The position numbers and the translations under genes were made by a program. A stretch of 56,238 nucleotides of DNA from a bacterium (GTDB lineage Bacteria; Bacteroidota; Ignavibacteria; Kapaibacteriales; UBA2268): positions 1-56,238 of the forward strand of contig JANJUO010000279.1 of NCBI GenBank assembly GCA_024710535.1, written 5' to 3'. The notes beneath the pieces are model-generated. The model was given only the letters and a program-made list of their open reading frames with translations, did not search any database and was not told where the DNA came from. Below are positions 1 through 48,195 of this stretch, piece after piece; position 1 is the stretch's first letter; every line of letters begins with the position of its first letter.

Positions 1-141
1 GGCCAGGTACTTTCGGGCCTTGTCGTCCAGCTTGTCCATCGTGTACCGGCTGGTGACGAACATCACCAGGCCGCCGGGCTTGACGCGATCAATGGTTTTG
101 GCAAAGAAGTAGTCATGCAGCGACAGCGCGCGCTTGGCATA
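1..141. repeat. Terminal overlap copy 1 (identical to 56098-56238)
   Basis: Direct comparison of the first and last lines of the window shows 141/141 identity. The overlap lies inside the methyltransferase-coding part of the giant ORF. Confidence 0.95.
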
Positions 142-3100
142 TTCCGGGTCGCCCAGGATCTTCGTGCCAGAGAACGGCGGGTTGCCGATGGCCACGTCAA
201 AGAAGTTCTTGGGAAGCTTCGTGTCAACGAACGACTCGACCAGGATGCGCTCATCCGGAAAAAGCTGCTTGAGGATGCCGCCCGTCATGGGCTCGAACTC
301 AATGCCGGTGTAGGACGAGCTGGCCGCGATGCCTTCAGGCATCAAGCCAGGGAAGATGCCGATGCCGGATCCGGGCTCCAGAATGGTGCCACCGGCAAAG
401 CCCATGCGCTGGGCTGCGCGCCACATGGACGAGACGACCGCCTTGCTGGTGTAGTGGGCGTACTGCGTGCTGCGCGAGGCGTCAGCAAACTCCTCGGGGG
501 TCAACAGTGCCTTGAGGCGGTCCCGCATTTCGATCCAGCGCAGCGTCTGCTTGTCGGGCATGACCTTCTTGATCATGTCCCGCGTGATCTCCTTGTGGGT
601 GTACCAGGTGATCTGAGGGTCGACCGCCTGCAGAGCCTTGAAGGCGTCCATGAACTCGGGGTCGCCCGAGACGTACTGGCGGCGGTAGCCAACGGTGTCA
701 TAGCCGCCGGGCTTGAGCGAATCCTTGCCGGCCTTGTCCATGGCGGCCAGGGCTTTCTCTGCCGACTCCTTGATGCTGGCGGCCTTGTTCAGCTTGTCGC
801 CGAACAGGTTGTTGGCCAACTCGGATGAGCCCCAACCAATGAACTTGGCCATGGTCTTCTGCTCATCGGCTGTGGCCTGGCGGCCGTCCTTCTGCAGGCG
901 CTTGAGCACCTCGATAGCGGAGATGTTCGCCTCGGCCTTGGAGAACCAAGAGCCGGTATAGGTCAGATCGTCGTTGCCGAACCGGTAGTTCAGGCCTGAC
1001 TTGGGGGCGATGTCTCGGCCTGCAGGGACTCCACCCACTGCGCCATCGCCATTTCCTGGTGCGCCAGATCGGCGGCGCGGATTCGCTTGGCGCTCTCCAT
1101 CGGCCCCAGGCTGTCCCACTTTTGCGCCGCGCGCTGCTGCTGCGTCATCGTCACCACGTTGCTGCTGATCTCCTCGGCTGCGTCGCGCACGAACGCCGCC
1201 AACGTCCCCTTGCTGTCCATTTCCTTGAACAGGGCGGGCGCCTTGGCCTTGAGCGTTTCCTTGACCAGGTTGTGCAGTTGCATCATCGCCTCCGAATAGA
1301 TCGGGCTCATTGTAGCCGTTTACGGCTAGCTGTGGTACATTGGAGTCGAGAGGTGTACCAATGAGAGTCCCAGACAAATTCCCGCCCGGCTGCGAATTCG
1401 GCACCAACGGTGACGCAACCGAGTTCGTCAAGTTCCCGGATGGCCGGGTGTTCCGACTCGACGAAGACACCGGGCTGCTGGCCTTGACGCCTGCCAAGGA
1501 TTTGCCCATGTCGCCCGGCAGCAACCGGTCGGACGAAGCCTCGTTGCGTGCCGCGGCAGCAGCGGCGGCCAAGGGGTAAATCTCCCGCTGAGAGTCCACG
1601 GCATCGGCCCTGGCCTTTGAACCTTCCTTCTCTGCACGCTCGATCTCATATAGCGCATGACCCTCGGCCAGCTTCACAGCCAGCATTTCTGGCACGTTGA
1701 TCTGGATCTCGGCGATCACCCCGTTGGGCAGCTTCACATTGACCAGCACCTGGCCGTAGCCTGACGGCACAAATGAGCCGCGCTTGCCGTCGATCTCGGC
1801 GTCGGTCATGTTCTTGACGCGGCCGGGCAGCACGTCGAACTGCTCCCGAATCGCATCCAGCACCACCTGGGCGTCCGCATAGCTGCTCACCACGATGGTC
1901 GAGCGCAGCATGTCGTACATCTTGTTCGCATCAAACATGGCCTCGTTGACCAGCTTGCGCGTCGCGCTGTCCAGAGACTTGACCGTCGTGAGCATCTGCC
2001 CAAGAGCGCCCGTCTTCTTGGCAATGTCGATGACCTTCTGATCGTACTCAGCTTTGGTGTCCTCGGCCCGGCGGATCAGCGGCTTGATCATCACCTCGGC
2101 ACGCGCGCGGTCGGCTTCGCTGATCGGGATCGGGGCGGCGGCCTTGCTCAGATCCCGAATCTGAGCGCGCGCCTTCTCCAGGACATCGGCCGCGATGAAC
2201 GTGTCTGTCGCCGGCGGCTTGAAGTTGTCGCGCGCCGGGTTGTATTCGCGACCGTTGATCGTGGCCACCTTCGGTGGCGTCTCGGCCAGCATGTTCGCCA
2301 GGTCGAACAAATCGCCCTGAACTGCATCGGTGGCAGCGTCCAGGTCGTCGAACAGGCTGCCCTGCTCCGCGGCCTTGGGGCGCGTCTCCATGGCCTGCAG
2401 CGCGGCCTTGTTGTAGGTCGCCGGTGCAATCTTGTTCCAGAAGGTCTTGAATCGCGGATCCTGCTTGAGCTGATCCTTCACCCACTTGGTGGTGGCCTTC
2501 ATGTCGGTACCGGCAATACGGATGGCCGAGTCGAACAGTTTGACCAGGGTCGGCATCAGGCCGGGGGTGTCCTCGGGGACCATCGCAGCGCGGGTGTGCT
2601 TGGATGCAATGGCCGCCAGGTCCGCCAGGGCGTCCTTGAAGTCCTGCACCGCCTCGGCGCGCTTGAGCGTCAGGTCGTTGGCACCATCGGACTGCTTGAC
2701 CCCGGGGAAGCTACGCACGACGGCCAGCAGCTCCTTGATCGGCGCATTGAAGCGGATCACCTGGGCCTGGTCGTTGGCAGCCACGGAGCCCATCCACTGA
2801 TGGTGACCGTCAAGAACGTACCCATCGGACGAAACCAGCACAGAGCGGTCGCCCTTCGTGTCGCTCTCCATCCAACCGCGAACCTTCTTGGGGGAGAACT
2901 CGGCCTGGGTGGGCTTGAGATCCGAAGCGGGAACAGCGGCACGCTCATGCTCGATGCCCCGCGACTTCAGGAAAGCGATCAGCGCTGGGCGCTCGGTGAC
3001 TTTGACCTGAGGCATCAGGGCACGGGGAATACCCAACGTGCCCGAGTCCTCGGGGAACATCACCCATTCGGCCTGGCCGTCTGCTGCGCCTTGCTGTCCT

Positions 3101-5922
3101 GATTGGGCATTTTGGCTGGCGCCTTCATTTCCGCCAGGGCCTTGGCCACGGCCTTGCGCATCTTCGGGTTGCTGTCGATCTTGGCCAGCAGGTCGGTCAG
3201 TGCTTTGCTCTTGCTCATTGGTCCCCTTTGCGGTCTTGAGTAGATCGGCGCGCGTCGGCGCCTCGGTGTCACCCAGCAGTGATCCCTGATTCGGGTCGCC
3301 GGCCGCCTCCAGGGCCTCGTAGTAGCGCTGCAGGAACTCGGCAATGCGCCGCGGACTGCGGATGTTGTCGGCCAGGAACTGGAGCAGATCGGCTGCCTCG
3401 GCGGAATACTTCGGCCCGGTCAGGTCGGTCTGACCCAGCTCCTGGGCCACCGTCCAGCCTTTGTCCTTGATCGAAGACAGACCCTCAACGGCCTGCACCA
3501 GGTCGGGCGCAATGTCGGCGTCATAAAGGCTACCGGCCTGCACTCGGTCCCGTGCAGCCGCAATCGAGGGGGCGGCGCGCACCAGGGCCTTGGAGACGTT
3601 GACCAGGTTGTTGTCCAGGCTCTCGGTCATCCGGCGCAGGGTCGGGCTGTCACCGTAGGCCTTGGCCAGGATGGCGTTCTGCATCCGGCGATAGCCGGTA
3701 GTCGACAGCCGCCCGTCACTCTCGATCATGTCCGACTGCTCGGTGATCGGCAGGGTTGCCATGAACTGGCGGATGAAGTCGTAGCTGGTGCTGAAGTCGC
3801 CGTTGTCGTCGGGCTGCAGGCCCTCCAGGCTGGTCAGGCGCCGGGCATCGGCCGAAGCCTGCTCGCTCGGGCTCATGCGCTGGATGGTCGACTGGTTGGC
3901 CTGGCGAGCAAACTCTGCCCGGTTCACCGGTGTGGCGCGAACCCGCACCAGCACTGGCTTGCGCATGCCGTCGACAGCCTCAGGCGTGATGCCGAACTGA
4001 GCGGCGGACTGGCGCAGCCAAGCCTTGTAATCCTCAGCTTTTTGGCCTTGAGCCTGGTACACGCGCTTGAGGGCGATCGTCCGGGCGTTGCCGGACTCCA
4101 CCAGGCCATCAGCGCCCACAATCGGTGCACCGGTGGCGGCGTCGGCGGAAACACCGAGACGCGCGGGATCCAGACGCTGCACGATGCTGGACACCTGCAA
4201 CTCGCTGGCCTGGCGCGATCGGTCGCGCGGCTGAAGCTCGGGAGGGAACAGCGGGTTCTGGCGCAGGTTCTCGTCGTGCGAGGTCACCAGGTCATCGGCA
4301 TCGACGAGGGCGTATTCGCCGTCCAGCTTGACGCCGGCCTCCGTCGAGAAGGATGTCGGCGCCCCTTTGATGGCAGTCGGCCAGGTCCGGGCGATCGAAT
4401 CGCGCTCGGCCTGGATCTGCTGGGCTTGCTGCGCCAGGTCGTTTCGCTCCGTGTCGAAGGCCGGGCCGTAGCCGTTTTCCGGCGACAGTTCGGTCATGCG
4501 CTTTTCCAAGCGCTGCAGCTCGGCACCAAGCTGGTCAGCGCGATCGAGCGCGGTCAGGTTGACCGGTTTGCGCAGCGCGCGCTCGGCCTCGTCAGTCGAC
4601 GAAGTGGCTACCCCAGCGGCTTGAACATTGGAATCGGGTCGTCCCGTGTCGGATACAACGGGGGCGGCGGCTCCATCAGTTCGCGCTGGCGTTGCCGCTT
4701 GATCTTGCCCGGCTTCAGGGATGGCCCCCTCATTGATGACGGCGCCATCGGATCCTTGCGCTTGGTTCGTGACACCTTGATCCCCTGAAAAGCGGTCCCG
4801 AATGCCGCTGTACGCGCCGCGGCCAGCGCCGGCTGGCGCGCCGCCCATGGCGCCCAGCACCAGGTTGGCTGCGGAGTCTTCGCCGATTTCCTTGGTCGGC
4901 ACGACACTGGCCACGCCAATATCAGAGGCAACGCCTTCGCCGACCTCTTGCACGCCCTCCTCGGCACCAGACAGCACAGCGCCTGCCGCGGTTTTTCCGG
5001 CAATCGACTTGCCTGCGGCACGGGTCAGAAGCGGGTCGAGCTTGCCGGTGACCAGCTTGCCGGTGAACCGATCGCCCACCGAGGCCACCGTGCCCTGAAG
5101 AAGCGCAGCAGACTCCGAGGCCTTGTCGAGGGTGAGACGGCGAGCCTCCTCGTAGGACGCCCCACCGTTGACCAGGCGGGCAAAGAACGGGCTTTGCTGC
5201 ATGAGCTCGTCATCGGTCTTGCCGGCGATGAAGCGGCTGGCGGACTCTGCACCTTCGCCCGCGGCCATGGATCCCCCAATCGCGCCGCCGACGTTCGGGC
5301 TCTTGGTCAACAAGGAGCCGACGACGACCGGCAGCATGGACCCGAACACATCGGATGCCTGCATCACAAAGCCGCGGACACTCGGATCCTTGCCGAAATC
5401 GATCTCACCCTTGAAGATGTTGCCGGTGATCTGGCTGTCGGCCACCGCCTGGCGGGTCGCTTCGCTGGTAGTGGCATGGATGGCCTCACGCCCATCCTGG
5501 CCAGCCTTGGCAAGGGAGCGGGCACCGGGGAGATTCGGAATACCAGAGGCTGCGCGCTCGGCGGCCAGGAATCGGACGTCCTTGTCGCGCTGAGTCTCTG
5601 GGCCGTGGATGGTTTCGTCAGTATCGATGCCCGGGTTGTAGATACCCGCCGGCACCATGGAGTCGCCTGAGGCTTCTACGGAGCTTCGGACAAGGGACTT
5701 GACGCCCTTCTCAATGCCCAAGGGGATCGATGCGACCCCAGAGACGACGGCGCCCGCGGCCCGCTTTCCCATGTCCAGGCCAAACTCGGCGATACCGTCA
5801 ATGAAAGACTGCTTCTTGGCGGGCTTTTGAGCTCCGCCTTCAGTCTCGAAATCCTGTTCCCAGGGTTTGGCGCCAGTGTCGGCAGTTTCAGCGGACCAGT
5901 CTTGTTCCCATGGTTTGGACAT
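1..5922 (-). CDS. Giant polyvalent multidomain protein, N-terminal part (ATG 5922); the ORF leaves the window at nt 1 and continues from 56097 downwards on the circle
   Basis: The minus frame with codon starts divisible by 3 has an in-frame TAG at 5926-5928 and then no stop down to nt 1. The track lists no ORF in this frame because it never terminates here. ATG 5922 follows GGGG..AGAG. Hand translation gives ParB-like motifs (LQPRDRS 4216-4236, SGNAR 4081-4095, DGHHQ 2797-2811), RelA/SpoT-like motifs (SGYGQ 1750-1764, AEIQI 1699-1713) and N6-MTase motifs (EPGSGIG ~355-390, NPPF 172-183). Confidence 0.85.
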   Translation of the reverse strand, partial: MSKPWEQDWSAETADTGAKPWEQDFETEGGAQKPAKKQSFIDGIAEFGLDMGKRAAGAVVSGVASIPLGIEKGVKSLVRSSVEASGDSMVPAGIYNPGIDTDETIHGPETQRDKDVRFLAAERAASGIPNLPGARSLAKAGQDGREAIHATTSEATRQAVADSQITGNIFKGEIDFGKDPSVRGFVMQASDVFGSMLPVVVGSLLTKSPNVGGAIGGSMAAGEGAESASRFIAGKTDDELMQQSPFFARLVNGGASYEEARRLTLDKASESAALLQGTVASVGDRFTGKLVTGKLDPLLTRAAGKSIAGKTAAGAVLSGAEEGVQEVGEGVASDIGVASVVPTKEIGEDSAANLVLGAMGGAPAGAGRGAYSGIRDRFSGDQGVTNQAQGSDGAVINEGAIPEAGQDQAATPARTDGAAAPVVSDTGRPDSNVQAAGVATSSTDEAERALRKPVNLTALDRADQLGAELQRLEKRMTELSPENGYGPAFDTERNDLAQQAQQIQAERDSIARTWPTAIKGAPTSFSTEAGVKLDGEYALVDADDLVTSHDENLRQNPLFPPELQPRDRSRQASELQVSSIVQRLDPARLGVSADAATGAPIVGADGLVESGNARTIALKRVYQAQGQKAEDYKAWLRQSAAQFGITPEAVDGMRKPVLVRVRATPVNRAEFARQANQSTIQRMSPSEQASADARRLTSLEGLQPDDNGDFSTSYDFIRQFMATLPITEQSDMIESDGRLSTTGYRRMQNAILAKAYGDSPTLRRMTESLDNNLVNVSKALVRAAPSIAAARDRVQAGSLYDADIAPDLVQAVEGLSSIKDKGWTVAQELGQTDLTGPKYSAEAADLLQFLADNIRSPRRIAEFLQRYYEALEAAGDPNQGSLLGDTEAPTRADLLKTAKGTNEQEQSTDRPAGQDRQQPEDAQGRGQGPGGNEGASQNAQSGQQGAADGQAEWVMFPEDSGTLGIPRALMPQVKVTERPALIAFLKSRGIEHERAAVPASDLKPTQAEFSPKKVRGWMESDTKGDRSVLVSSDGYVLDGHHQWMGSVAANDQAQVIRFNAPIKELLAVVRSFPGVKQSDGANDLTLKRAEAVQDFKDALADLAAIASKHTRAAMVPEDTPGLMPTLVKLFDSAIRIAGTDMKATTKWVKDQLKQDPRFKTFWNKIAPATYNKAALQAMETRPKAAEQGSLFDDLDAATDAVQGDLFDLANMLAETPPKVATINGREYNPARDNFKPPATDTFIAADVLEKARAQIRDLSKAAAPIPISEADRARAEVMIKPLIRRAEDTKAEYDQKVIDIAKKTGALGQMLTTVKSLDSATRKLVNEAMFDANKMYDMLRSTIVVSSYADAQVVLDAIREQFDVLPGRVKNMTDAEIDGKRGSFVPSGYGQVLVNVKLPNGVIAEIQINVPEMLAVKLAEGHALYEIERAEKEGSKARADAVDSQREIYPLAAAAAAARNEASSDRLLPGDMGKSLAGVKASSPVSSSSRNTRPSGNLTNSVASPLVPNSQPGGNLSGTLIGTPLDSNVPQLAVNGYNEPDLFGGDDATAQPGQGNAQGQGARPVQGNGQQGDVGGVRARRSRGDQQQRGDDDAAAARGAKVGQPGADGERQANPRRRSGAPGNGDGAVGGVPAGRDIAPKSGLNYRFGNDDLTYTGSWFSKAEANISAIEVLKRLQKDGRQATADEQKTMAKFIGWGSSELANNLFGDKLNKAASIKESAEKALAAMDKAGKDSLKPGGYDTVGYRRQYVSGDPEFMDAFKALQAVDPQITWYTHKEITRDMIKKVMPDKQTLRWIEMRDRLKALLTPEEFADASRSTQYAHYTSKAVVSSMWRAAQRMGFAGGTILEPGSGIGIFPGLMPEGIAASSSYTGIEFEPMTGGILKQLFPDERILVESFVDTKLPKNFFDVAIGNPPFSGTKILGDPEYAKRALSLHDYFFAKTIDRVKPGGLVMFVTSRYTMDKLDDKARKYLA
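990..1310 (-). CDS. 106-aa helical protein encoded in the +1 frame of the giant ORF (MSPIYSEAMMQLHNLVKETLKAKAPALFKEMDSKGTLAAFVRDAAEEISSNVV...)
   Basis: Third-position GC is 18/20 in this frame and 8/20 in the giant frame in both 1021-1080 and 1201-1260. The pattern reverts to 17/20 for the giant frame in 901-960. The sequence is strongly protein-like, whereas the giant frame reads G/Q/R/D junk. ATG 1310 follows a stop at 1320-1322 and a 48 % GC gap. No clear SD. Confidence 0.6.
   Translation of the reverse strand: MSPIYSEAMMQLHNLVKETLKAKAPALFKEMDSKGTLAAFVRDAAEEISSNVVTMTQQQRAAQKWDSLGPMESAKRIRAADLAHQEMAMAQWVESLQAETSPPSQA
1313..1328. promoter_or_regulatory. Operator-like inverted repeat TAGCCGT-TT-ACGGCTA in an AT-richer gap inside the giant ORF
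   Basis: Perfect 7-bp arms lie between the divergent starts at 1310 (-) and 1361 (+). 1321-1380 is 29/60 GC with no codon periodicity. The core AGCCGTTTAC recurs at 38179-38191, with close variants at the early promoter regions (34565-34579, 36059-36124). A possible extended -10 TGgTACATT lies at 1333-1341 (+). Confidence 0.45.
1361..1579 (+). CDS. Possible 72-aa plus-strand ORF antisense to the giant ORF (MRVPDKFPPGCEFGTNGDATEFVKFPDGRVFRLDEDTGLLALTPAKDL...)
   Basis: ATG 1361 lies 7 nt after GAGAGG (1348-1353). Third codon positions coincide with those of the antisense giant frame, so GC3 is uninformative. First-position G enrichment and amino-acid composition favour the plus strand. The giant-frame translation here is S/P/G-rich and junk-like. 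Confidence 0.35.
   Translation: MRVPDKFPPGCEFGTNGDATEFVKFPDGRVFRLDEDTGLLALTPAKDLPMSPGSNRSDEASLRAAAAAAAKG
3060..3218 (-). CDS. Possible 52-aa ORF in the +1 frame of the giant ORF (MSKSKALTDLLAKIDSNPKMRKAVAKALAEMKAPAKMPNQDSKAQQTARPNG)
   Basis: ATG 3218 sits 5 nt after AAGGGG. In 3121-3180 third-position GC is 19/20 in this frame and 8/20 in the giant frame. The stop TGA (3060-3062) overlaps an in-frame ATG of the giant frame (TGATG) that opens the ParB-like DGHHQ module (MFPEDSGTLGIPRAL...). Confidence 0.45.
   Translation of the reverse strand: MSKSKALTDLLAKIDSNPKMRKAVAKALAEMKAPAKMPNQDSKAQQTARPNG
4608..4748 (-). CDS. Possible 46-aa ORF in the +1 frame of the giant ORF (MAPSSMRGPSLKPGKIKRQRQRELMEPPPPLYPTRDDPIPMFKPLG)
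   Basis: ATG 4748 sits 5 nt after AAGGA. In 4621-4680 the third-position GC is 9/20 in the giant frame and 15/20 in the +1 frame. The giant-frame translation here is a Q/G/D/A/T low-complexity stretch. The +1 signal could also be a composition artefact. Confidence 0.25.
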   Translation of the reverse strand: MAPSSMRGPSLKPGKIKRQRQRELMEPPPPLYPTRDDPIPMFKPLG

Positions 5923-5981
5923 GCTCTAACCCCATGCATTCGATGGGGTGTGAGCCTGTCATGCTTGCCACGTTTGCCGGG

Positions 5982-7517
5982 TCACTGAACCTTGCCGGCC
6001 GACACCTTGCGCCAGCTTTTCTCGTCATTCGGGTTGCCACCAAGGAATTCGTATCCGCCCACCACCTGACCCTTTGAGATCGTGCGGCCGCTCGACTTGC
6101 CACCGCCTGACGCCCCACCAGTAGGCGCCAGAAACTTCTGCAACGCCTCGTTGGTGTCTGTGATCTGGTTCTTGCGCATGAACTCGAAGAACTCGCGCTC
6201 CCGGGTCGGGTTGCGGTTGACCACCTGGCGCCCGGTCATTGGATCCACCAGGGCGTTGCCGTTGGCGTCCGTCGCCGGGGTGCCCAGCAGAGTAGTCACG
6301 TCACCGGCCTCGACCTTGTAGCCGCCTTCCTTCTTGGGTACGGCTGGCAGCACCCCGCGCCGCACAGCCTCAAGCTCGGCGGCAGTTGCTCCAGGGTTGC
6401 GCTCCTGGAACAAGGCAACTCCCGCTGCTATACGGGCCGCCTCCTCGGACTTGCTGGCCCCAGCGCTGGCTGCTGCACGCCCCTCCGCGCGCTCCGCACG
6501 AGCATCCTGGCGCAGCGCCAACGCGTTGCGGAACTCGTTCTGCGACCAGTTGTAGACGGCCATCGGGTCCTTGAGGGCGGCCAGCGACGATGTCAGATGG
6601 TTCACATCCTTGAAGGTCATGGGCGGCATCGGCTGGCCACCGTCAGACTGGCGCTCAACGACGATGGAGCCGTTCGCACCCTGCCTCACGCCGGTGACCG
6701 TTGCACCGTCAGGCAAAAATCGATCGTAGAACTGGCGCGCAGCATCGAGATCGCCCGCATTGACCGCGGCGATGGTTTGCCCCAGCGCCTGGTCGCGCTG
6801 GGCTGTTTCAAGCTGGATCTTGACGAACGACTGCGCGTTGTAGTCCTTGATAATGGCCTGCGCAGCGTCGGTCTTGCCCGCTTCAATCAGCTTAGCCGCC
6901 TTGAACTGGCTGGCGGCCAGGTAGTCGTCCACCGTGGCCGGCCGCGTCTGCCCGTCCTGGCCAGCAAGCCGGCCTTGCATGAATTGCCCGACTTCACCCT
7001 CCAGGGTCTTCATGAATGCGTCGTTGGCATCCTCCTCGGCACCCTTTCGCATCTCCCGGGTTGCGCGTGCTTCTTCCCACCCGAAACGCTTGTCATCGCG
7101 CTCGGCCATGATCACATCGCGCATCATCCGGGAGCCTTGCACCGGGTCAGATCGACTGACCACCCCGGCAATGGCGCGCTGGCGGGCATTGGCCACATCG
7201 GTGTCAGACATCGTGCCGGCAGTGCGTTTGCCAAGGAAGTCCGTCACCCCCTGCTGCGTCACCTTGGCCGCCATCGACGGGTCGGACTTGGGCGTGACCA
7301 CGTAGGACTTCGAAGATTCGTCCCAGCCGATGTCGTACTGTCCAGACTCGGCCGCGCGGCGCAACTCGTCGCCCTGATCCGCGGTGAACCCTGTTGACTG
7401 CTCTGGGTTGGCTCTGGCGATCTCGTCGATGTCACCCTGATCCATCATGGAGTTCAACCGGCTGCCGATCGACAGGCCACCGCTGAATCCGTTGACAAAG
7501 CCTGCGAACTTGCTCAT
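5982..7517 (-). CDS. Hypothetical virion/internal protein (511 aa)
   Basis: ATG 7517 has SD GGAGAAA and an ATGA overlap with the upstream stop. The sequence is protein-like and Ala/Gln/Asp-rich. It sits between the virion-module genes and the giant ORF. Confidence 0.75.
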   Translation of the reverse strand: MSKFAGFVNGFSGGLSIGSRLNSMMDQGDIDEIARANPEQSTGFTADQGDELRRAAESGQYDIGWDESSKSYVVTPKSDPSMAAKVTQQGVTDFLGKRTAGTMSDTDVANARQRAIAGVVSRSDPVQGSRMMRDVIMAERDDKRFGWEEARATREMRKGAEEDANDAFMKTLEGEVGQFMQGRLAGQDGQTRPATVDDYLAASQFKAAKLIEAGKTDAAQAIIKDYNAQSFVKIQLETAQRDQALGQTIAAVNAGDLDAARQFYDRFLPDGATVTGVRQGANGSIVVERQSDGGQPMPPMTFKDVNHLTSSLAALKDPMAVYNWSQNEFRNALALRQDARAERAEGRAAASAGASKSEEAARIAAGVALFQERNPGATAAELEAVRRGVLPAVPKKEGGYKVEAGDVTTLLGTPATDANGNALVDPMTGRQVVNRNPTREREFFEFMRKNQITDTNEALQKFLAPTGGASGGGKSSGRTISKGQVVGGYEFLGGNPNDEKSWRKVSAGKVQ

Positions 7518-8947
7518 TGCATTTCTCCGGTCAGAAACTGGTACTGCCGATCGATCTCGGCGCGGATCTCGGCGAGGTTGCGCACCAGAACAGCATGCTC
7601 GGCGGGATGCTTCTGGCGCATGTAGGCGGCCCGTCCTTCATCCCACCAGGCCGTGCAGCCCATGCACTCGGGTGCGCGTCTGGCCCCGCTGTCGTAATAG
7701 TCGGCCAGCGGCAGCCCCTCGTCCTGCAGGTAGGCGGATACCCGTTCTCCTGTCCAGCTCTGGATCGGATACAGGAACTCGAAGCCCTCCCCAACGTCGC
7801 CACTGCGGTAGGGTGGACGGTTGAACTCGTCGTCGCGCTGGCCGCGCACGATCAAGGTGATTCCGTCAGCGATCATGCGCTGGTGCATCGGGTGCATGAG
7901 CGATCGGGCGCAGCATTCGTAGCGGCTTTGAATCTGCAGTGCACGCCCGGACACGTGGCGCCCAACGTATGCATGGTTGTCGACCGGTACCAGATCTGAG
8001 GGCATGCCGAATTGCTCGCGGACTGCTGAGACATCAGAGACGATGCGCTCCAGCTTCACGCCGGTGGCGGCCAGATCCGCCTCGACGCGCGCAACTACGT
8101 CACGGGTCGCCGGGAACTGATCTCCGGTGTCCAGGTGGTAGATCGTCATCTGATGCCAGTACGGCCGAAGCAGATATAGCGCCGCGGTGGAGTCGCGCCC
8201 ACCGGAAAACTGAAACCCGACTCGGGTGTGCCTGCTCATGGCCCAAGCCACAGGATCAAGGCCCTGCTCTTGACGCACAAAGCGCCAGGTAGCGGGCCAC
8301 ACATCCCCGACCACGACATCAAAGACATCAGGCCCCATCACTTCGCGAAGCCGGTTCACGGCAGGTTCATGAATCAGCGACTCGTGCAACCGAAAGCCCG
8401 CCAACGCGGCCGAGTGGCACACCGCCTGATTGGTATGCGCCGCCGCCCCCAGGCGATGCCACATCACGAGGTTGTCACCGCTGGCTCGCACGTAGTCGAA
8501 GATGAACAGCACACCACCAGGCTTGAGCACACGCCGCACCTCCCGCATCGTAGCGAACCAGTCGGCAGAGTGGCACATGGCGAAGTTGAACATTACAACG
8601 TCAACAGTCCCATCGGCTATCGGCAGGTGATTAAAGTCGGCCAAATGCACGTTGAGGCCTGAGGCCTTGCAGATCTCGGCTTGGTGCTCGTTGTTGTTGA
8701 CCAGGATGAACTCCAGGTCTGGGCGCTCCGCCCCCATCAATGTGGCCACCGCACCAACACCGCACCCCGCGTCAAGCACCACAGCACCTGCCGGCGGATC
8801 CATGAGCTGCAGCAGCCGCCGGACGTGCCCGTACTCGCTGGGCTCCAGAAGCGCGCCATTGAACACCGTCATGCCCTTGGCCATCAACGCATCGGTGGCA
8901 GACTCAAGTTGTCGCATCAGATCCTCATCAAATTGCGATGGATGCAT
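7514..8947 (-). CDS. Fusion of a class I SAM-dependent methyltransferase with a PAPS-reductase-like PP-loop ATP pyrophosphatase
   Basis: N-terminal half has VVLDAGCGVGAVA and LKPGGVLFIFD. C-terminal half has FSGGRDSTAALY (SGGxDS PP-loop), RGQRDDE and CMGC. ATG 8947 (MHPSQFDEDL) is preferred over the track start at 9073, whose upstream part is R/P-rich junk. Confidence 0.7.
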   Translation of the reverse strand: MHPSQFDEDLMRQLESATDALMAKGMTVFNGALLEPSEYGHVRRLLQLMDPPAGAVVLDAGCGVGAVATLMGAERPDLEFILVNNNEHQAEICKASGLNVHLADFNHLPIADGTVDVVMFNFAMCHSADWFATMREVRRVLKPGGVLFIFDYVRASGDNLVMWHRLGAAAHTNQAVCHSAALAGFRLHESLIHEPAVNRLREVMGPDVFDVVVGDVWPATWRFVRQEQGLDPVAWAMSRHTRVGFQFSGGRDSTAALYLLRPYWHQMTIYHLDTGDQFPATRDVVARVEADLAATGVKLERIVSDVSAVREQFGMPSDLVPVDNHAYVGRHVSGRALQIQSRYECCARSLMHPMHQRMIADGITLIVRGQRDDEFNRPPYRSGDVGEGFEFLYPIQSWTGERVSAYLQDEGLPLADYYDSGARRAPECMGCTAWWDEGRAAYMRQKHPAEHAVLVRNLAEIRAEIDRQYQFLTGEMQ

Positions 8948-9782
8948 AAATACCGACACCGGTACCAACAGCACCCCACATGCCGGCTTCTTCTTGGGCT
9001 GCGGCATTGCGAGCGTTGTTGTAGATGCCCGCCTGGGTGCCGTAGAGCTGGGCTGCCGTCGAACCAGAACCACTGGCAGCGCCAGCGGCGGCCGAGTAGC
9101 TACTGTTCATGCCCGCCACACCCTGGTTGACTACGGTCACGCCCGCGGTACCGTTTGTCAGACTGTTCTGGGTCGTCTGCATGGCCATCGCCGGGTAGCC
9201 CGACAAAGAGTTCGCAGCACGATCGGTCAGCGCGCGCCCTTCCCACCGGGCAGCTTCTCGGGCATCGTTTCCGGATGCAGCCTTGATACCGGCCTTTGCC
9301 AGGCTTGCAGCATTGGCATCCACGCCAAACCGCGTGGAATTGGGGTTGACGCCCATGCGGGTGAGACTACGGACACGATCCTGGTCAGCGCTTGCGGCAG
9401 CCGTCTCAACGTCGGCCATCGCCTTGCTGGCCAGCTCCTCCTGCCGGCCGGGCAGGTTGAACTCGTCGGCCTCCTTGATCATCCGGTTTTGCTGGGTGGT
9501 GAGCTGCCCACGGCGCTCCAGCATGTACCGGCGATCTTCTCGCGAGTCTGCATAGGCGGTTCTTGCCGCCATGAGCCCAAACTGCATCTGCTGCTGCTGC
9601 AGGGGGGCCAGGGCGTTGGCATTCGCCATGATCGACTTTGCGGCATCGGCCTGAATGTTCAGCGAATTGATCTGAGCATCAACCAGGCGCGGGTCCGGTG
9701 GAGGCGTTGAGTTCCCGCCGCCACCAAGGTACAGCCGAATGCCGTCACCCCAATACCCCTCGTGCTTACTGCGAATCAACAT
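8928..9782 (-). CDS. Hypothetical virion/internal (ejection-type) protein (284 aa)
   Basis: ATG 9782 follows AAAGGA. The sequence is Ala/Gly/Asn/Gln-rich with a hydrophobic C-terminus (GAVGTGVGIYASIAI) and lies in the virion module. Confidence 0.7.
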   Translation of the reverse strand: MLIRSKHEGYWGDGIRLYLGGGGNSTPPPDPRLVDAQINSLNIQADAAKSIMANANALAPLQQQQMQFGLMAARTAYADSREDRRYMLERRGQLTTQQNRMIKEADEFNLPGRQEELASKAMADVETAAASADQDRVRSLTRMGVNPNSTRFGVDANAASLAKAGIKAASGNDAREAARWEGRALTDRAANSLSGYPAMAMQTTQNSLTNGTAGVTVVNQGVAGMNSSYSAAAGAASGSGSTAAQLYGTQAGIYNNARNAAAQEEAGMWGAVGTGVGIYASIAI

Positions 9783-10218
9783 AGCGGCATCCTTTCGCCC
9801 ACATGACGTAGATCACAACGTCGCCGCCATCCTCTGCAGCTCCAGATAAAACCGCCTCGGGCTCAAACCCAAGGTGCTCCGCAAACGTGCGGCATTTCTC
9901 ATTGCTCGCCTCGACATACCCTGTCAGCCGAGACAGGCCGCAAACCTTGAATGCATACAGAAACGGGATGCGAACAGACTGCCTGTTGAGCCAGCGCTTG
10001 TCTTCGACGGCAGCAACATGCACCCAGGCGTTGTGACGCCCGATGTTCTCGAAGATCACCCCGGCCACCAACTCTCCGCGCCTGCGCCAGCCGATCCCGA
10101 CCATATGGTCCCGCCGCTTCACGCCAGGTACCCGCGCACGAACAAAGTCGAGCACGGGTTCAAGCTGGTACTCGATGGCCTGGGCAGTCATGGCGGCCCA
10201 TGCTGCCATGCTTGGCAC
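9766..10218 (-). CDS. GNAT-family N-acetyltransferase-like protein
   Basis: The sequence (ELVAGVIFENIGRHNAWVHVAA ... CGLSRLTGYVEASNEKCRTFAEHLGFEPE) fits the GNAT core pattern. The start is uncertain: GTG 10218 or ATG 10209. Confidence 0.6.
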   Translation of the reverse strand: MPSMAAWAAMTAQAIEYQLEPVLDFVRARVPGVKRRDHMVGIGWRRRGELVAGVIFENIGRHNAWVHVAAVEDKRWLNRQSVRIPFLYAFKVCGLSRLTGYVEASNEKCRTFAEHLGFEPEAVLSGAAEDGGDVVIYVMWAKGCRYVDSQ

Positions 10219-10221
10219 GCG

Positions 10222-10413
10222 CTATTGCAGGCGCTCTGCGATAGCGTTCAGGCGCTCAATCACCTGGGACAAGGTAGCGTTGCTGGGCAGTGGCGCTAGC
10301 TTTTCAAATCCCCGGGCCTGCCCGGTGATCTGGTCTAAATTCTGCTTGACCGCACTCAGCGCCTGATCAAGTGAATGCTGACCAGTGCGAACCGCTGGGA
10401 TCGACTGCTTCAT
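10222..10413 (-). CDS. Small hypothetical protein (63 aa)
   Basis: ATG 10413 overlaps the upstream stop (ATGA). The sequence is protein-like and helical. Confidence 0.65.
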   Translation of the reverse strand: MKQSIPAVRTGQHSLDQALSAVKQNLDQITGQARGFEKLAPLPSNATLSQVIERLNAIAERLQ

Positions 10414-12407
10414 GCCGAGAACTGAGCCAATTCATCCATCGACTGCGCGATGGTGACGTTGTGAATCCTGACGCTGCCTGAAATCCCGATCGATACGGTT
10501 TCCTGTTTGAATCCGTCAGGCAGCGGGAACGGCGTTTCGTTGGGGACCTCCTGGGTGTAAATGGCCTTGCCTTTCTCGTACAGCGTGAATTGAACCTTCT
10601 TCTGGGTTCTCCGCGGAATTGGAGTTAGGTTGCTGCCATTGATCTCGACATCCAGAAACCCGAACGAGAGGACGTGACCGCCAACAGAATCAGCACCTTC
10701 GGCCAGGAGCAACGCATTGTTGTCCACCTCGGTAGTCGGGTCCGGTGGCTGCTCGCTGTAATTGGCATGCACTTGCGCAACCGAGAAGTTCAGGGGTTTG
10801 CCAAGTTGAAGCACCGGGCTGATCCAATCCGTGAACATCGGATTGGCCTGATCAGCATCCCAGCGAAATATCTTGGATCCCTTGGCCAGGTACAACTCTC
10901 CGTCGAGCTCATTGCGCAGCAGAGCATCAGCCCACTCGGTGATTCGAACGTCGCTATCTGGCTCCGTTGCATCGAACGAGATCATCCGGCGACCGTCCAC
11001 AGTCTGGTGAACGGCCATGTACTTGCTGTCGTGGAACACGCCCACGAACGAGGCGGGATTCAAAGCCTTCCATTCGTCTTTTCGGTAGAGCCTGGCCGTC
11101 AGGTTTCGGTTGTCCCCAGGGGCAGCCAGCCAAAGGCCGTCATGCGACGGATAGAGCACGCCGCCGCCGACGTTGGCCGCGCCGCGCTTGCTCACGCACG
11201 GCGCATAGGTCTGCAGCACCGTCGGGCTCATGCTCTCGGGGTCCGTGCCCGTGAACATGATCGGGAAGCTCTCGGTCAGGACAATGATCGAATCACCAGC
11301 GTCGGCCGCGTGAACCCCTCGGCCAGAAAATGCGTACCTGTTTGATGCTGGCCAAGAGTACGGCAGGTAGGGCGCCGACAGACACAGCTCATTGTCGGCA
11401 ATGCCGAACAGACACCCGTTGGGCAGCACGCCGAGGCTTTTCAGGTTCGCCGGAGGGGGAAGCCCACCGATGGTTTCCATCGCCCCGCCCAAAGCGGTGC
11501 CCGCGATGGTGTCGTTGTAAGTGGCGTCAGCGGCCGGGATCTCGGCAACAAACAGAAATGTGCCAGCAGTCCCTGCGGTTCGGTAAATCCGCTTCTTCAT
11601 CCCCGACGTGTTGTACGGGGCCGCTCGTTCCCACGTCACAGAAGCGCCAACCGACCATGGGCCGCGAACGATCTCAACCTGGTTCGACGCGGCGATCACA
11701 TCAACCAGCCGGTGGGACTCCACCACTCCGTCAATGGACAGCTTCAGCGTCTGGTGCTTGGCTATCCCAAACACGGTGTTCAAGGTCAGCCGAAGCCTCC
11801 CGGATGACAGAGCCGATACCGCCGTCACCGTGCCCGAATTCGGGGGCGCGGCCTGCAAGTTCGTCAAAGCCCAAGTCCCGTTGGCATTGCCGGTTACCAC
11901 GTCAGATGCAGGTGATGGGCCAGACTCAGCGCCAAGAGCATCTACGTAGGTGTACGCATAGGCGCGAGACTCGGTGGGTGCAGCTCCACCAGAGACAGTA
12001 AGCCCGGGCTTCTGCGTTGGCAGGGGCAAGCCAAGTGCAAACCATGCAGTTGGATAAGGCAGCGTGTCGATGGCCAGGTCGAACGTCGACATCCGAGGTT
12101 CAAACTGATCCGACGACCAATAGAACCGGCCTTTTTCGTCGTTCGCAAGCGGAGAAAGCACCAGGTCGACGTCTTCGGAAAAGGTGAGCCAATTGTCCTG
12201 AATGCCGTCGTCGGTGATGTGCCGATAGCGGAAGAATGTCGAGATCTGCCGCCCGATGTCAATCGTCGTCTCAAGCCCCGCAATGGGATCGAGCGCACCG
12301 CTCGTGATCTTGCAATTCACCGCCCGCTGGGCGAAGTTGGGCAGAAGCAGGCGCTCGCTCAAGCGAGGGACCTGCCCGCGGATGTCTTTGATGTGAATTG
12401 CAGCCAT
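10410..12407 (-). CDS. Tail protein (665 aa), nozzle/tubular-type
   Basis: Large beta-rich protein in the tail module next to the fibre genes. The function is assigned from size and position only. Confidence 0.6.
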   Translation of the reverse strand: MAAIHIKDIRGQVPRLSERLLLPNFAQRAVNCKITSGALDPIAGLETTIDIGRQISTFFRYRHITDDGIQDNWLTFSEDVDLVLSPLANDEKGRFYWSSDQFEPRMSTFDLAIDTLPYPTAWFALGLPLPTQKPGLTVSGGAAPTESRAYAYTYVDALGAESGPSPASDVVTGNANGTWALTNLQAAPPNSGTVTAVSALSSGRLRLTLNTVFGIAKHQTLKLSIDGVVESHRLVDVIAASNQVEIVRGPWSVGASVTWERAAPYNTSGMKKRIYRTAGTAGTFLFVAEIPAADATYNDTIAGTALGGAMETIGGLPPPANLKSLGVLPNGCLFGIADNELCLSAPYLPYSWPASNRYAFSGRGVHAADAGDSIIVLTESFPIMFTGTDPESMSPTVLQTYAPCVSKRGAANVGGGVLYPSHDGLWLAAPGDNRNLTARLYRKDEWKALNPASFVGVFHDSKYMAVHQTVDGRRMISFDATEPDSDVRITEWADALLRNELDGELYLAKGSKIFRWDADQANPMFTDWISPVLQLGKPLNFSVAQVHANYSEQPPDPTTEVDNNALLLAEGADSVGGHVLSFGFLDVEINGSNLTPIPRRTQKKVQFTLYEKGKAIYTQEVPNETPFPLPDGFKQETVSIGISGSVRIHNVTIAQSMDELAQFSA

Positions 12408-46810: not shown

Positions 46811-47236
46811 CTACGGGAACAGGATCTGCTCAAGCAGCTTCTTGTACTCGCGAGAAATCCGCCTGGATGCTAGCGCGCCGGAAACGATCCGCCACAAAAC
46901 TTGGCCGTCAAACGGCTCCTTGACGGTGTACTGGCCTTGCTGAACCATCTTTTCGATGTGGCTCACCTGCTCCAGCCTGGAGAACCTGTAGTCGAGGTAA
47001 CTCTGCCTCTGGATAAACGGGTGATCTCCAGGTGCAAGCACGCAACTGGTTTCCACATTAAGCCCGTCGTGCAGGGTACAAACCGGGACCATCAAAACCA
47101 TCGGCTGGCTGCCGTAACCATCGACAGCCAGTGGCTCGATCACGATTGCAAACAGGTGCTGTTTGTCACCTGGGCCAGAAGGCACCAGAACAGACTCAGC
47201 TCTGCGGCAGATCCAAGAAGGGGTAGCTGCGCTCAA
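46811..47236 (-). CDS. Putative toxin partner of the Panacea-domain protein (141 aa)
   Basis: TTG 47236 overlaps the upstream TGA (TTGA); there is no in-frame ATG before residue ~93 of the track ORF. The protein-like part is KQHLFAIVIEPL...MVLMVPVCT...CVLAPGDHPFIQRQSYLDY. The toxin role is inferred only from genomic context. Confidence 0.45.
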   Translation of the reverse strand: MSAATPSWICRRAESVLVPSGPGDKQHLFAIVIEPLAVDGYGSQPMVLMVPVCTLHDGLNVETSCVLAPGDHPFIQRQSYLDYRFSRLEQVSHIEKMVQQGQYTVKEPFDGQVLWRIVSGALASRRISREYKKLLEQILFP

Positions 47237-47811
47237 CGGAATGCGGCATTGACTCGTTTTGCGTCGTGCAGCCGTCGTGAGATCGCCTGCACCTGAACGT
47301 CGGAATAGCCAACCGCTCTCAAGAGTCGCGCGTATGGAATTGGCCGACTTTTGCCCATGGGGTCTTCCCACTCTGGGCAAGCCTCGGAGTGGGTGTAGTT
47401 CCTAAGCTTGAATCGCTCCCAATGCCCAAACTGCCCCCAGGTCTCATACAGGCATTCCAGATCTGTCTCACTGAGAGCAAGAAGATCTTCTTCGGGAGAG
47501 CGGATCATGCTTGGATCTTTCAGACCGACAGCGTGACCATCACGGTCAGAGATCCAAGATGACCACCCACCAGGTACTGACGGCAGGTTTCCATTCGAAT
47601 GGTCATAGGTAATCGACAGCACCGGGCCATGCGGCATCGACACGAACTCGTCTCCGGTGATCGTGTCACCAAACTTCTGCATGGACAGCCTTTCGGCCAG
47701 ATACAGAAGCTTGATCAATTTGAGCAACGGCAAATTCCCACCGGCCTTGTGCAGGAAGAACGCCGCAGCTTGGGCGGCCTTCTTCTCGTCGAAAAGTACG
47801 TAGGGGCTCAT
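47233..47811 (-). CDS. Panacea-domain (DUF4065, SocA/PanA-like) putative antitoxin
   Basis: N-terminal AAQAAAFFLHKAGGNLPLLKLIKLLYLAERLSMQKFGDTITGDEFVSMPHGPVLS matches the DUF4065 pattern. ATG 47811 is preferred to 47850. Confidence 0.6.
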   Translation of the reverse strand: MSPYVLFDEKKAAQAAAFFLHKAGGNLPLLKLIKLLYLAERLSMQKFGDTITGDEFVSMPHGPVLSITYDHSNGNLPSVPGGWSSWISDRDGHAVGLKDPSMIRSPEEDLLALSETDLECLYETWGQFGHWERFKLRNYTHSEACPEWEDPMGKSRPIPYARLLRAVGYSDVQVQAISRRLHDAKRVNAAFR

Positions 47812-47997
47812 GGTCTGCCTGTGGTTGAGGTCAATGCTGCCACGCAACATATTGGAGCATCGAACCGGTGTAGGGAATAGAGGAAACCCACAAATCGACC
47901 CTCATTTGAGGGGCCCGGCAACGGCCTTTGTCTCTGCAAGGCCACAAACTGTATTCCAAACATTGGAATATGGACACAACCTGCCCGTGATCGTTCT

Positions 47998-48033
47998 AAA
48001 GAAAAAGCCCCGTAAGTCATTGACTTACAGGGC
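47998..48033 (-). terminator. Rho-independent terminator downstream of the tRNA fragment and the giant ORF
   Basis: On the minus strand: GCCCTGTAAGTCAaTGACTTACGGGGC followed by TTTTTCTTT. Confidence 0.6.
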
Positions 48034-48040
48034 GATTCTT

Positions 48041-48090
48041 TGGCGGAGTGGACGGGGCTCGAACCCGCGACCCCCGGCGTGACAGGCCGG
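48041..48090 (-). other. 3' 50 nt of a tRNA-Asp(GUC) gene: probable attP core
   Basis: The reverse complement CCGGCCTGTCACGCCGGGGGTCGCGGGTTCGAGCCCCGTCCACTCCGCCA covers the anticodon stem-loop (CU-GUC-AC), variable loop, T-arm, acceptor 3' strand and CCA, near-identical to E. coli tRNA-Asp. No D-arm or 5' acceptor strand lies upstream. Confidence 0.75.
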
Positions 48091-48195
48091 AGCCAAAACC
48101 CAGCATCGACGCTGGTACCGGACCTATTTTTAATTCCAAAAATCACCATGAATAGCCCAGCATTTGCGCGGTGCGCGCCGGGTCTATTCCAAAGT

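Follow-up and report, generated by a model that had tools for sequence, protein, structure and literature searches.

The minus strand of contig JANJUO010000279.1 (GenBank assembly GCA_024710535.1), which was analyzed over its full length of 56,238 nucleotides (the window), codes for a giant protein of 4,607 amino acids (aa) that harbors a RelA/SpoT homologue (RSH) synthetase domain in its interior. Judged by sequence profiles and by a structural model, this segment is a genuine domain of the RSH fold and is closest to Tas1/Apk1. The domain is under strong purifying conservation and its catalytic set is intact. It is probable, if by no means certain, that it forms a catalytically competent pyrophosphokinase module of the Tas1/Apk1 type, one of several effectors arranged along a polyvalent DarB-like protein of a Bcep22-like phage. 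Residue numbers given below count from Met1 of the 4,607-aa open reading frame (ORF). The elements that are needed first are the following:

1-5922, minus strand: giant ORF, part 1 (residues 1-1974), running off the window start
48196-56238, minus strand: giant ORF, part 2, after the circular join, with the remainder of the methyltransferase, the helicase, the HEAAH motif and the C-terminal region
1576-2118, minus strand: RSH synthetase domain (residues 1269-1449), Pfam core at 1669-1983

Evidence for the RSH synthetase fold

A sequence-only reading of the window had proposed a RelA/SpoT-like domain at 1640-2060 on the basis of a hand translation, which proved to be exact on the minus strand (KMYDMLRSTIVVSSYADAQVVLDAIREQF ... 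GKRGSFVPSGYGQVLVNVKLPNGVIAEIQINVPEMLAVKLAEGHALYEIER). The proposed interval lies inside the RSH domain but the real extent of the domain is wider (1576-2118). Profile hidden Markov models, fold prediction together with fold search, and the catalytic residues all agree on the RSH synthetase fold. The suspected link to toxic alarmone synthetases was also borne out, the closest relative of solved structure being the (p)ppApp-synthesizing toxin Tas1/Apk1.

The Pfam family RelA_SpoT (PF04607), whose curated cut-off is 27 bits, matched the isolated 181-aa domain with 30.2 bits (E = 6e-07). The score amounted to 28.8 bits in a 274-aa piece and to 24.6 bits in the whole protein. The same family also matched 32 of 41 family members individually. 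When the single sequence was compared with the PDB, Tas1 (6OX6) gave the best match (E = 2.8e-4), the aligned blocks being KIKDLARNTIIV / KMYDMLRSTIVV, GYSGV / GYGQV and GEIQVNSPEM / AEIQINVPEM. A profile made from the 41 family sequences again placed Tas1/Apk1 (6OX6) first, with E = 2.9e-24 and 89 bits, followed by Rel, RelA, RelQ-like and SaEAS at E-values of 1e-8 to 1e-3, of which Rel was the next best at 38.6 bits. The AlphaFold2 model of the domain, based on the 41-sequence alignment, reached a pLDDT of 96.4 and a pTM of 0.90. In a Foldseek search of the PDB with this model, all of the 50 best matches were RSH synthetase domains, with Tas1 in first place (TM 0.69/0.65) and SaEAS at TM 0.70. 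The best matches in a viral structure library (TM 0.72-0.87, 30-36% identity) were uncultured Caudovirales proteins. They bore the labels RelA/SpoT, DdrB-like domain-containing or ART-PolyVal-like; a small siphovirus protein labeled 'Tas1' was also found.

An exhaustive search of 1.84 billion cluster representatives retrieved 770 proteins at E <= 1e-3, including 122 that reached E <= 1e-10; the best hits were mostly 2,000-5,300 aa long. When the 274-aa segment alone was used for a word-indexed protein search, no match resulted. By tblastn, the segment matched only Bordetella phage PHB04 among cultured phages and a single Azospirillum sequence among plasmids. Neither the giant protein nor the RSH segment was covered by an NCBIfam family.

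Conservation of the domain and its catalytic residues

Eleven positions that are near-invariant across 150 representatives of the family (96-99%) are all kept in the domain: K1315, K1323, D1337, R1340, G1388, Y1389, E1405, Q1407, K1417, H1422 and Y1425. Among them are the catalytic Asp, Glu and Gln (D1337, E1405 and Q1407) and the Lys and Arg residues that bind ATP (K1315, K1323 and R1340); these six are 97-99% conserved and align with their counterparts in Tas1 and Rel. The motifs occur in Tas1-like variants, DxxRxT and EIQ(I/V)NxPEM being evident when the single sequence is aligned and GHxxYE when the profile is used.

Across its core (residues 1310-1430), the RSH domain shares 72-83% identity with the three closest relatives. 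For these relatives, identity amounts to 74-80% in the DdrB-ParB domain, and to 74% in the helicase and 60% in the methylase as compared with P0001, the only one of the three carrying the latter two. The RSH core thereby matches or exceeds all other regions in conservation, except for DdrB-ParB in P0003. The high identity of the core within the lineage argues for a working domain. In distant full-length relatives the picture is reversed, since the RSH core is only 45-54% and the helicase 69-83% identical, which means that the RSH module of this lineage has diverged faster than its carrier.

Two residues depart from the family pattern. Position 1319 is Ser, where 87% of the family have Arg, and position 1391 is Gln, where 95% have Asp; among the representatives, this combination is confined to the protein studied here and its three closest relatives. 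It might be argued from the conservation of both positions that the activity was changed or lost in this lineage through R1319S and D1391Q, leaving a module that binds nucleotides or has a structural role, or else an enzyme that uses a new acceptor. This is improbable, as all other invariant residues are retained and the core is well conserved within the lineage. Moreover, the two positions also vary in active enzymes and in other lineages: they are occupied by Arg/Gly in Tas1, by Ser/Ser in Rel, by Arg/Gln in the IMG/VR contig L003 and by Ser/Gly in L073-L082. Because of this variability, including that in Tas1 and Rel, 1319 and 1391 appear to concern specificity or to lie in a second shell, rather than to take part in catalysis.

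Proposed delivery and predicted activity

The helicase region of the giant protein shares 45-46% identity, across 98% of its length, with the DarB-like proteins of phages Bcep22 (gp75), JC1 (gp69), DC1 and BcepIL02 and of Ralstonia phages. Mass spectrometry of purified virions revealed JC1 gp69, a protein of 4,515 aa, among their components (PMC9144972). The gene order also agrees with that of JC1 (PMC9144972), with a 3'-phosphoadenosine-5'-phosphosulfate (PAPS) reductase gene, which is fused to a methyltransferase here, then a gene for a protein of ~510 aa (511 aa here) and then the giant gene. Unlike the protein described here, the DarB-like proteins of the cultured Bcep22-like members show no sign of an RSH module; in the database records, a lytic transglycosylase is annotated within these proteins. 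Since the JC1 homologue is virion-associated, it may reasonably be assumed that the giant protein is packaged and co-injected. The injection with the DNA that the sequence-only reading had envisaged is in this respect plausible by homology.

According to the proposed mechanism, the giant protein would be packed in the capsid and enter the host with the DNA. The RSH module would then take the beta-gamma pyrophosphate from ATP and attach it to a nucleotide 3'-OH. The likeliest acceptors would be ADP and ATP, resulting in (p)ppApp as with Tas1, and the reaction could consume ATP and perturb purine metabolism or host responses in the first minutes of infection. (p)ppApp is regarded as the likeliest product because Tas1 is the closest relative by a large margin. 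The acceptor is nonetheless the least certain step and cannot be read from the sequence; for an adenine nucleotide the chances are even at best. For the phage, the candidate gains comprise shutting off the host, interfering with nucleotide-dependent defences, or killing non-permissive cells.

A guanine-nucleotide acceptor is unlikely, though it deserves attention. The domain would then be a (p)ppGpp synthetase that, upon entry, shuts down or reprogrammes host transcription and translation in the manner of a stringent response, which is the reading of Iyer et al. (PMC5512222). Its fold and catalytic residues are common to (p)ppGpp synthetases, and Ser at position 1319 is found in canonical Rel enzymes. 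Furthermore, the Apk1 homologues differ in their products: VpEAS and AaEAS make only (p)ppGpp while SaEAS makes both alarmones (PMC12691689). The motifs of the present family had no match in the supplementary sequence lists of that study (PMC12691689), so that the family was apparently not included or the lists are not searchable text. On the other hand, the family profile gave 89 bits with Tas1 and not more than 39 bits with any (p)ppGpp synthetase. The motif variants are likewise those of Tas1 and not of Rel or the small alarmone synthetases (SAS), the GY(R/Q)SxH motif being devoid of its His and EIQINxP standing in place of E(V/I)QIRT.

It is also doubtful, even more so than for a guanine nucleotide, that the domain is a tRNA-modifying RSH toxin which pyrophosphorylates the 3' end of tRNA. 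Toxins of this kind have the same fold, CapRel was among the fold matches (rank 47, TM 0.64), and the phage-encoded PhRel is cited among SAS enzymes that pyrophosphorylate the tRNA 3'-OH (PMC12691689). However, no tRNA-targeting toxic SAS (toxSAS) was among the profile matches in the PDB at E <= 1, and in the fold search Tas1 and nucleotide-producing enzymes ranked far above CapRel.

Several points weigh against a competent Tas1-type enzyme that is delivered by the virion. RelA_SpoT falls below its cut-off when the domain stands inside larger pieces (24.6-26.3 bits), and owing to S1319 and Q1391 specificity or activity may differ. Activity throughout this RSH family is a prediction from sequence and fold. 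As the Apk1 homologues differ in product (PMC12691689), closeness to Tas1 does not fix the acceptor. With regard to delivery, the RSH module was not detected in cultured Bcep22-like phages, and the C-terminal 899 aa are without a cultured-phage match; because these parts have no cultured Bcep22-like counterpart, virion packaging is inferred through the central region only. Finally, given that no hydrolase or Tis1-like immunity gene was recognized, it is hard to explain how an ATP-draining enzyme is tolerated during virion packaging, although a Tis1-like protein may escape recognition by sequence.

The phage genome and the domain structure of the giant protein

The first 141 nucleotides of the window (1-141) are identical to the last 141 (56098-56238), from which a complete circular assembly of 56,097 bp follows. 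On the minus strand, a stop-free frame starts with the ATG at 5920-5922, runs off position 1, resumes at the window end and terminates with the stop codon at 48196-48198. Across the circular join, this results in one uninterrupted ORF of 4,607 aa that merges the start-cut giant ORF and a 2,655-aa ORF at the window end.

By its gene content, the genome is that of an uncultured temperate tailed phage of the Bcep22-like type. Scans with PHROGs and Pfam identified a large terminase, a P22-like portal, a major head protein, an internal virion protein, RecT, an integrase and an S24-type repressor peptidase. The ORFs used for the proteome scan came from GC3-based gene calling, which is imperfect, and were supplemented by hand. 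The giant ORF adjoins genes for the internal virion protein and for tail, capsid and portal proteins, and the head protein is ~50% identical to that of Burkholderia phage DC1 and of many Ralstonia phages. At the nucleotide level, positions 1-12000 of the window gave no megablast match to cultured phages or plasmids. A PAPS reductase 'moron' has been described at the equivalent place in Bcep22-like phages; its counterpart and the further domains of the giant protein are located as follows:

7514-9073, minus strand: methyltransferase-PAPS reductase fusion of 519 aa with a domain dependent on S-adenosylmethionine, two genes upstream of the giant gene
3937-4335, minus strand: DdrB-like ParB domain (residues 530-662; Pfam PF18763, E = 6e-37), homologous to DdrB of phage P1
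3073-3222, minus strand: low-complexity linker rich in Gln, Gly and Asp (residues ~901-950), a module boundary and not a gene start
2668-3072, minus strand: second ParB/Srx-fold module (residues 951-1085) with DGHHQ at 2797-2811
2119-2667, minus strand: inter-module region without family assignment (residues 1086-1268), less conserved, 44-49% identical to relatives
1-231, minus strand: beginning (residues ~1898-1974) of the Eco57I/N6-adenine methylase (residues ~1898-2009), with NPPF at 172-183
~52762-54384, minus strand: ResIII/SNF2-type helicase (residues ~2546-3086), identified by Pfam
51475-51489, minus strand: HEAAH (HExxH) motif (residues 3511-3515), in a region 33-61% identical among relatives
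48199-50895, minus strand: conserved C-terminal region of ~900 aa (residues ~3709-4607)

DdrB-ParB, ParB/Srx, RSH, N6-methylase and SNF2/ResIII helicase domains are thus combined in one ORF of the late/virion region, as is characteristic of polyvalent proteins. The region of the HEAAH motif had no Pfam family match; from its sequence, the motif could belong to a zincin-like self-processing peptidase, which is typical of polyvalent proteins. The C-terminal ~900 aa, which include a Gly-rich hydrophobic stretch, are 59-66% identical across all close giant relatives, even those devoid of the methylase-helicase part. Neither a Pfam family nor a tblastn match in cultured phages was found for the C-terminal 899 aa, and this region may have a role in packaging or ejection. 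No part of the giant protein gave a family match to a MuF/SPP1 gp7 domain.

Downstream of the giant gene, a tRNA-like remnant was noticed at 48044-48113 on the minus strand. It scored 22.8 bits in Rfam (cut-off 29), has an intact T-arm and ends at its 3' side with ...GGTTCGAGCCCCGTCCACTCCGCCA, while ARAGORN found no tRNA. After the remnant, a hairpin with a T-run lies at ~47995-48030. Both elements are probably an attP core and a terminator following the giant gene.

The neighboring ParB/Srx module

A ParB/Srx-like DGHHQ domain had been reported next to the RSH segment, and its fold is supported by modeling. The model reached a pLDDT of 91.8, and the top 18 PDB matches in the fold search were all ParB/Srx proteins (sulfiredoxin, ParB N-domains, Noc, SbnI and free serine kinase), with probabilities of 0.77-1.0 and weak E-values (9e-3 to 0.17). 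DGHH is invariant in 20 homologues, mostly in the form DGHHR. Pfam gave no match to the module apart from one weak ParBc_2 hit, and comparison of the single sequence with the PDB revealed nothing significant. Protein A repeats, which appeared as relatives of the module, were rejected as spurious summed profile matches.

The two domains had been regarded as a pair, and they do recur together. Of the 150 RSH-containing representatives, 32 also have a ParB/Srx module, which precedes the RSH domain in 30 of them and lies within 40-280 aa of it in 27. Five two-domain proteins of 428-603 aa consist of ParB/Srx and RSH, and in two giants the order is reversed. On account of this co-occurrence, the pair is considered a real recurrent association of two separable modules. 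The ParB/Srx-like module, presumably nucleotide-binding and usually preceding the RSH domain, may work together with it. It is conceivable, though the probability is small, that both form a two-enzyme nucleotide-modifying unit. A nucleoside triphosphate bound or hydrolyzed by ParB/Srx would then feed or gate the pyrophosphokinase, or the pair would add pyrophosphate to a nucleotide of host immune signalling or to some other 3'-OH acceptor. Such a unit would act as an injected counter-defence rather than as a growth-arresting toxin, and the lineage with S1319 and Q1391 and without a hydrolase would reflect a shift to a new acceptor.

The sequence-only reading had further suggested that the pair may be translated separately from an ATG at 3060. 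This codon is in frame and situated at the module boundary directly after the low-complexity linker, and stand-alone ParB/Srx-RSH proteins of the size given above exist elsewhere. Nevertheless, a separate unit is very improbable. The ATG (3058-3060) encodes the internal Met955, the frame is open on both sides with 954 codons upstream, and the overlapping TGA is out of frame. Met955 is not conserved, as homologues have G, N, V, A, R or H in its place. In addition, no promoter-like site was present in 1400-3600 and no clear Shine-Dalgarno sequence could be seen by eye upstream of the ATG.

Relatives, hydrolase partners and immunity

In one pattern scan of IMG/VR, 164 viral contigs were found to encode a relative of the RSH domain. 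In over half of the best 80 contigs, it is encoded within an ORF of 1,700 aa or longer, and many of these large ORFs show the order DdrB-ParB, ParB/Srx, RSH, helicase. The only match in a cultured phage is Bordetella phage vB_BbrM_PHB04 (L001, MF663786.1, 5095-7360), in which the RSH domain ends a 493-aa 'hypothetical protein' encoded directly after the portal gene. Downstream of this gene follow a 69-aa ORF and a gene for a 192-aa protein annotated as (p)ppGpp synthetase/hydrolase. The arrangement resembles Apk2-Tis1-Aph1 but is not annotated as such in the record.

Hydrolase partners also occur in uncultured relatives. The IMG/VR contigs L057, L059, L060 and L062 encode an RSH protein of 304-312 aa, with an HD_4 gene following roughly 1.5 kb (1.2-2.1 kb) further downstream. 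The giants L028, L031 and L034 contain, in frame, a sequence matching the PHB04 small alarmone hydrolase (SAH), located after the helicase, ~1,900 residues past the RSH domain (at ~12.2-12.5 kb in the locus). For L028 and L034, Pfam confirmed HD_4, the RelA/SpoT-type hydrolase family. On sequence evidence, synthetase and hydrolase are thus united in one polyvalent polypeptide in some giant relatives. The HD_4 partners fit a 3'-pyrophosphorylated product that can be hydrolyzed. In the phage studied here, no HD_4/SAH domain was found in the giant protein by Pfam, nor by tblastn with the PHB04 SAH, and there was none among the families listed (25 of 29 matched) for the 61 other ORFs of the genome.

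The only antitoxin-like gene found in the genome, a possible immunity gene, borders on the giant gene:

47233-47850, minus strand: SocA/Panacea antitoxin-domain gene (Pfam PF13274, E = 1e-20), directly downstream of the giant gene

This gene overlaps a 189-aa ORF (46811-47380, minus strand) that has no family match and is possibly its toxin. The pair is flanked by the integrase and the giant gene and lies in the part of the genome with the lowest G+C content (0.586). Due to this location and base composition, the two genes probably represent a toxin-antitoxin moron of their own. The Panacea protein is a possible candidate for immunity against the RSH domain, but membership in a separate toxin-antitoxin moron is more likely. 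Whereas a toxSAS (FaRel, FaRel2, PhRel, CapRel) is a small stand-alone toxin gene with an adjacent antitoxin gene, the RSH domain studied here is internal to the 4,607-aa ORF.

Comparison with known systems

With Tas1/Apk1 of Pseudomonas aeruginosa PA14, the domain shares K-x7-K, DxxRxT, GY, EIQ(I/V)NxPEM and GHxxYE, and both are cargo domains of larger proteins. Identity is only ~24%, and the carriers differ: Tas1 is part of a PAAR protein delivered by the type VI secretion system and has the immunity protein Tis1, while the present domain lies in the interior of a phage ORF of 4,607 aa. A phage-encoded Tas1 homologue fused to the capsid protein MuF, Apk2, was shown experimentally to make (p)ppApp (PMC10083569). 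Apk2 occurs in temperate phages (Bacteroides caccae, Streptococcus pneumoniae) together with Tis1-like and Aph1 immunity. It is likewise a Tas1-like RSH domain of phages on a capsid-internal protein and is thought to be co-injected with the DNA. An Apk2-like layout with an HD_4 gene downstream is found in the short relatives PHB04 and L057-L062. By contrast, neither a MuF domain nor an SAH/Aph1 gene was detected in the phage studied here, and the carrier is a DarB-like methylase-helicase giant.

As this locus illustrates, giant DarB-like proteins in Bcep22-type phages often carry Tas1-like domains as cargo. The question raised for Apk2, why a phage should deliver an ATP-consuming alarmone synthetase into a cell it needs for replication, arises here as well. 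Relatives with and without a hydrolase partner provide a natural contrast for asking whether these domains kill, reprogramme or protect. For practical work, the analysis defines a construct to be made (residues 951-1460 or 1260-1460) and the point mutants to go with it.

RelA/SpoT domains in polyvalent proteins of phages were described by Iyer, Burroughs, Anand, de Souza and Aravind in 2017, together with DdrB-ParB in Helicobacter prophages, and an alarmone-type shut-off was suggested (PMC5512222). The giant protein resembles the polyvalent proteins of that survey (PMC5512222) in that many unrelated enzymatic domains are joined in a protein of the late/virion region, with DdrB-ParB, the SNF2-type helicase and the N6A methylase as hubs. 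In the survey (PMC5512222), RSH domains were mainly found in prophages of Spirochaetes and Epsilonproteobacteria, whereas the present case concerns a high-G+C Bcep22-like phage, a large family and a recurrent ParB/Srx partner. RSH domains in polyvalent proteins (since 2017) and the Tas1-like Apk2 of phages are therefore already known, and public viral data sets label close structural relatives as RelA/SpoT or Tas1. To this knowledge, the analysis makes modest additions: the lineage with S1319 and Q1391 that lacks a hydrolase partner, the recurrent ParB/Srx partner, the relatives with HD_4 in frame, and the size of the family within DarB-like giants.

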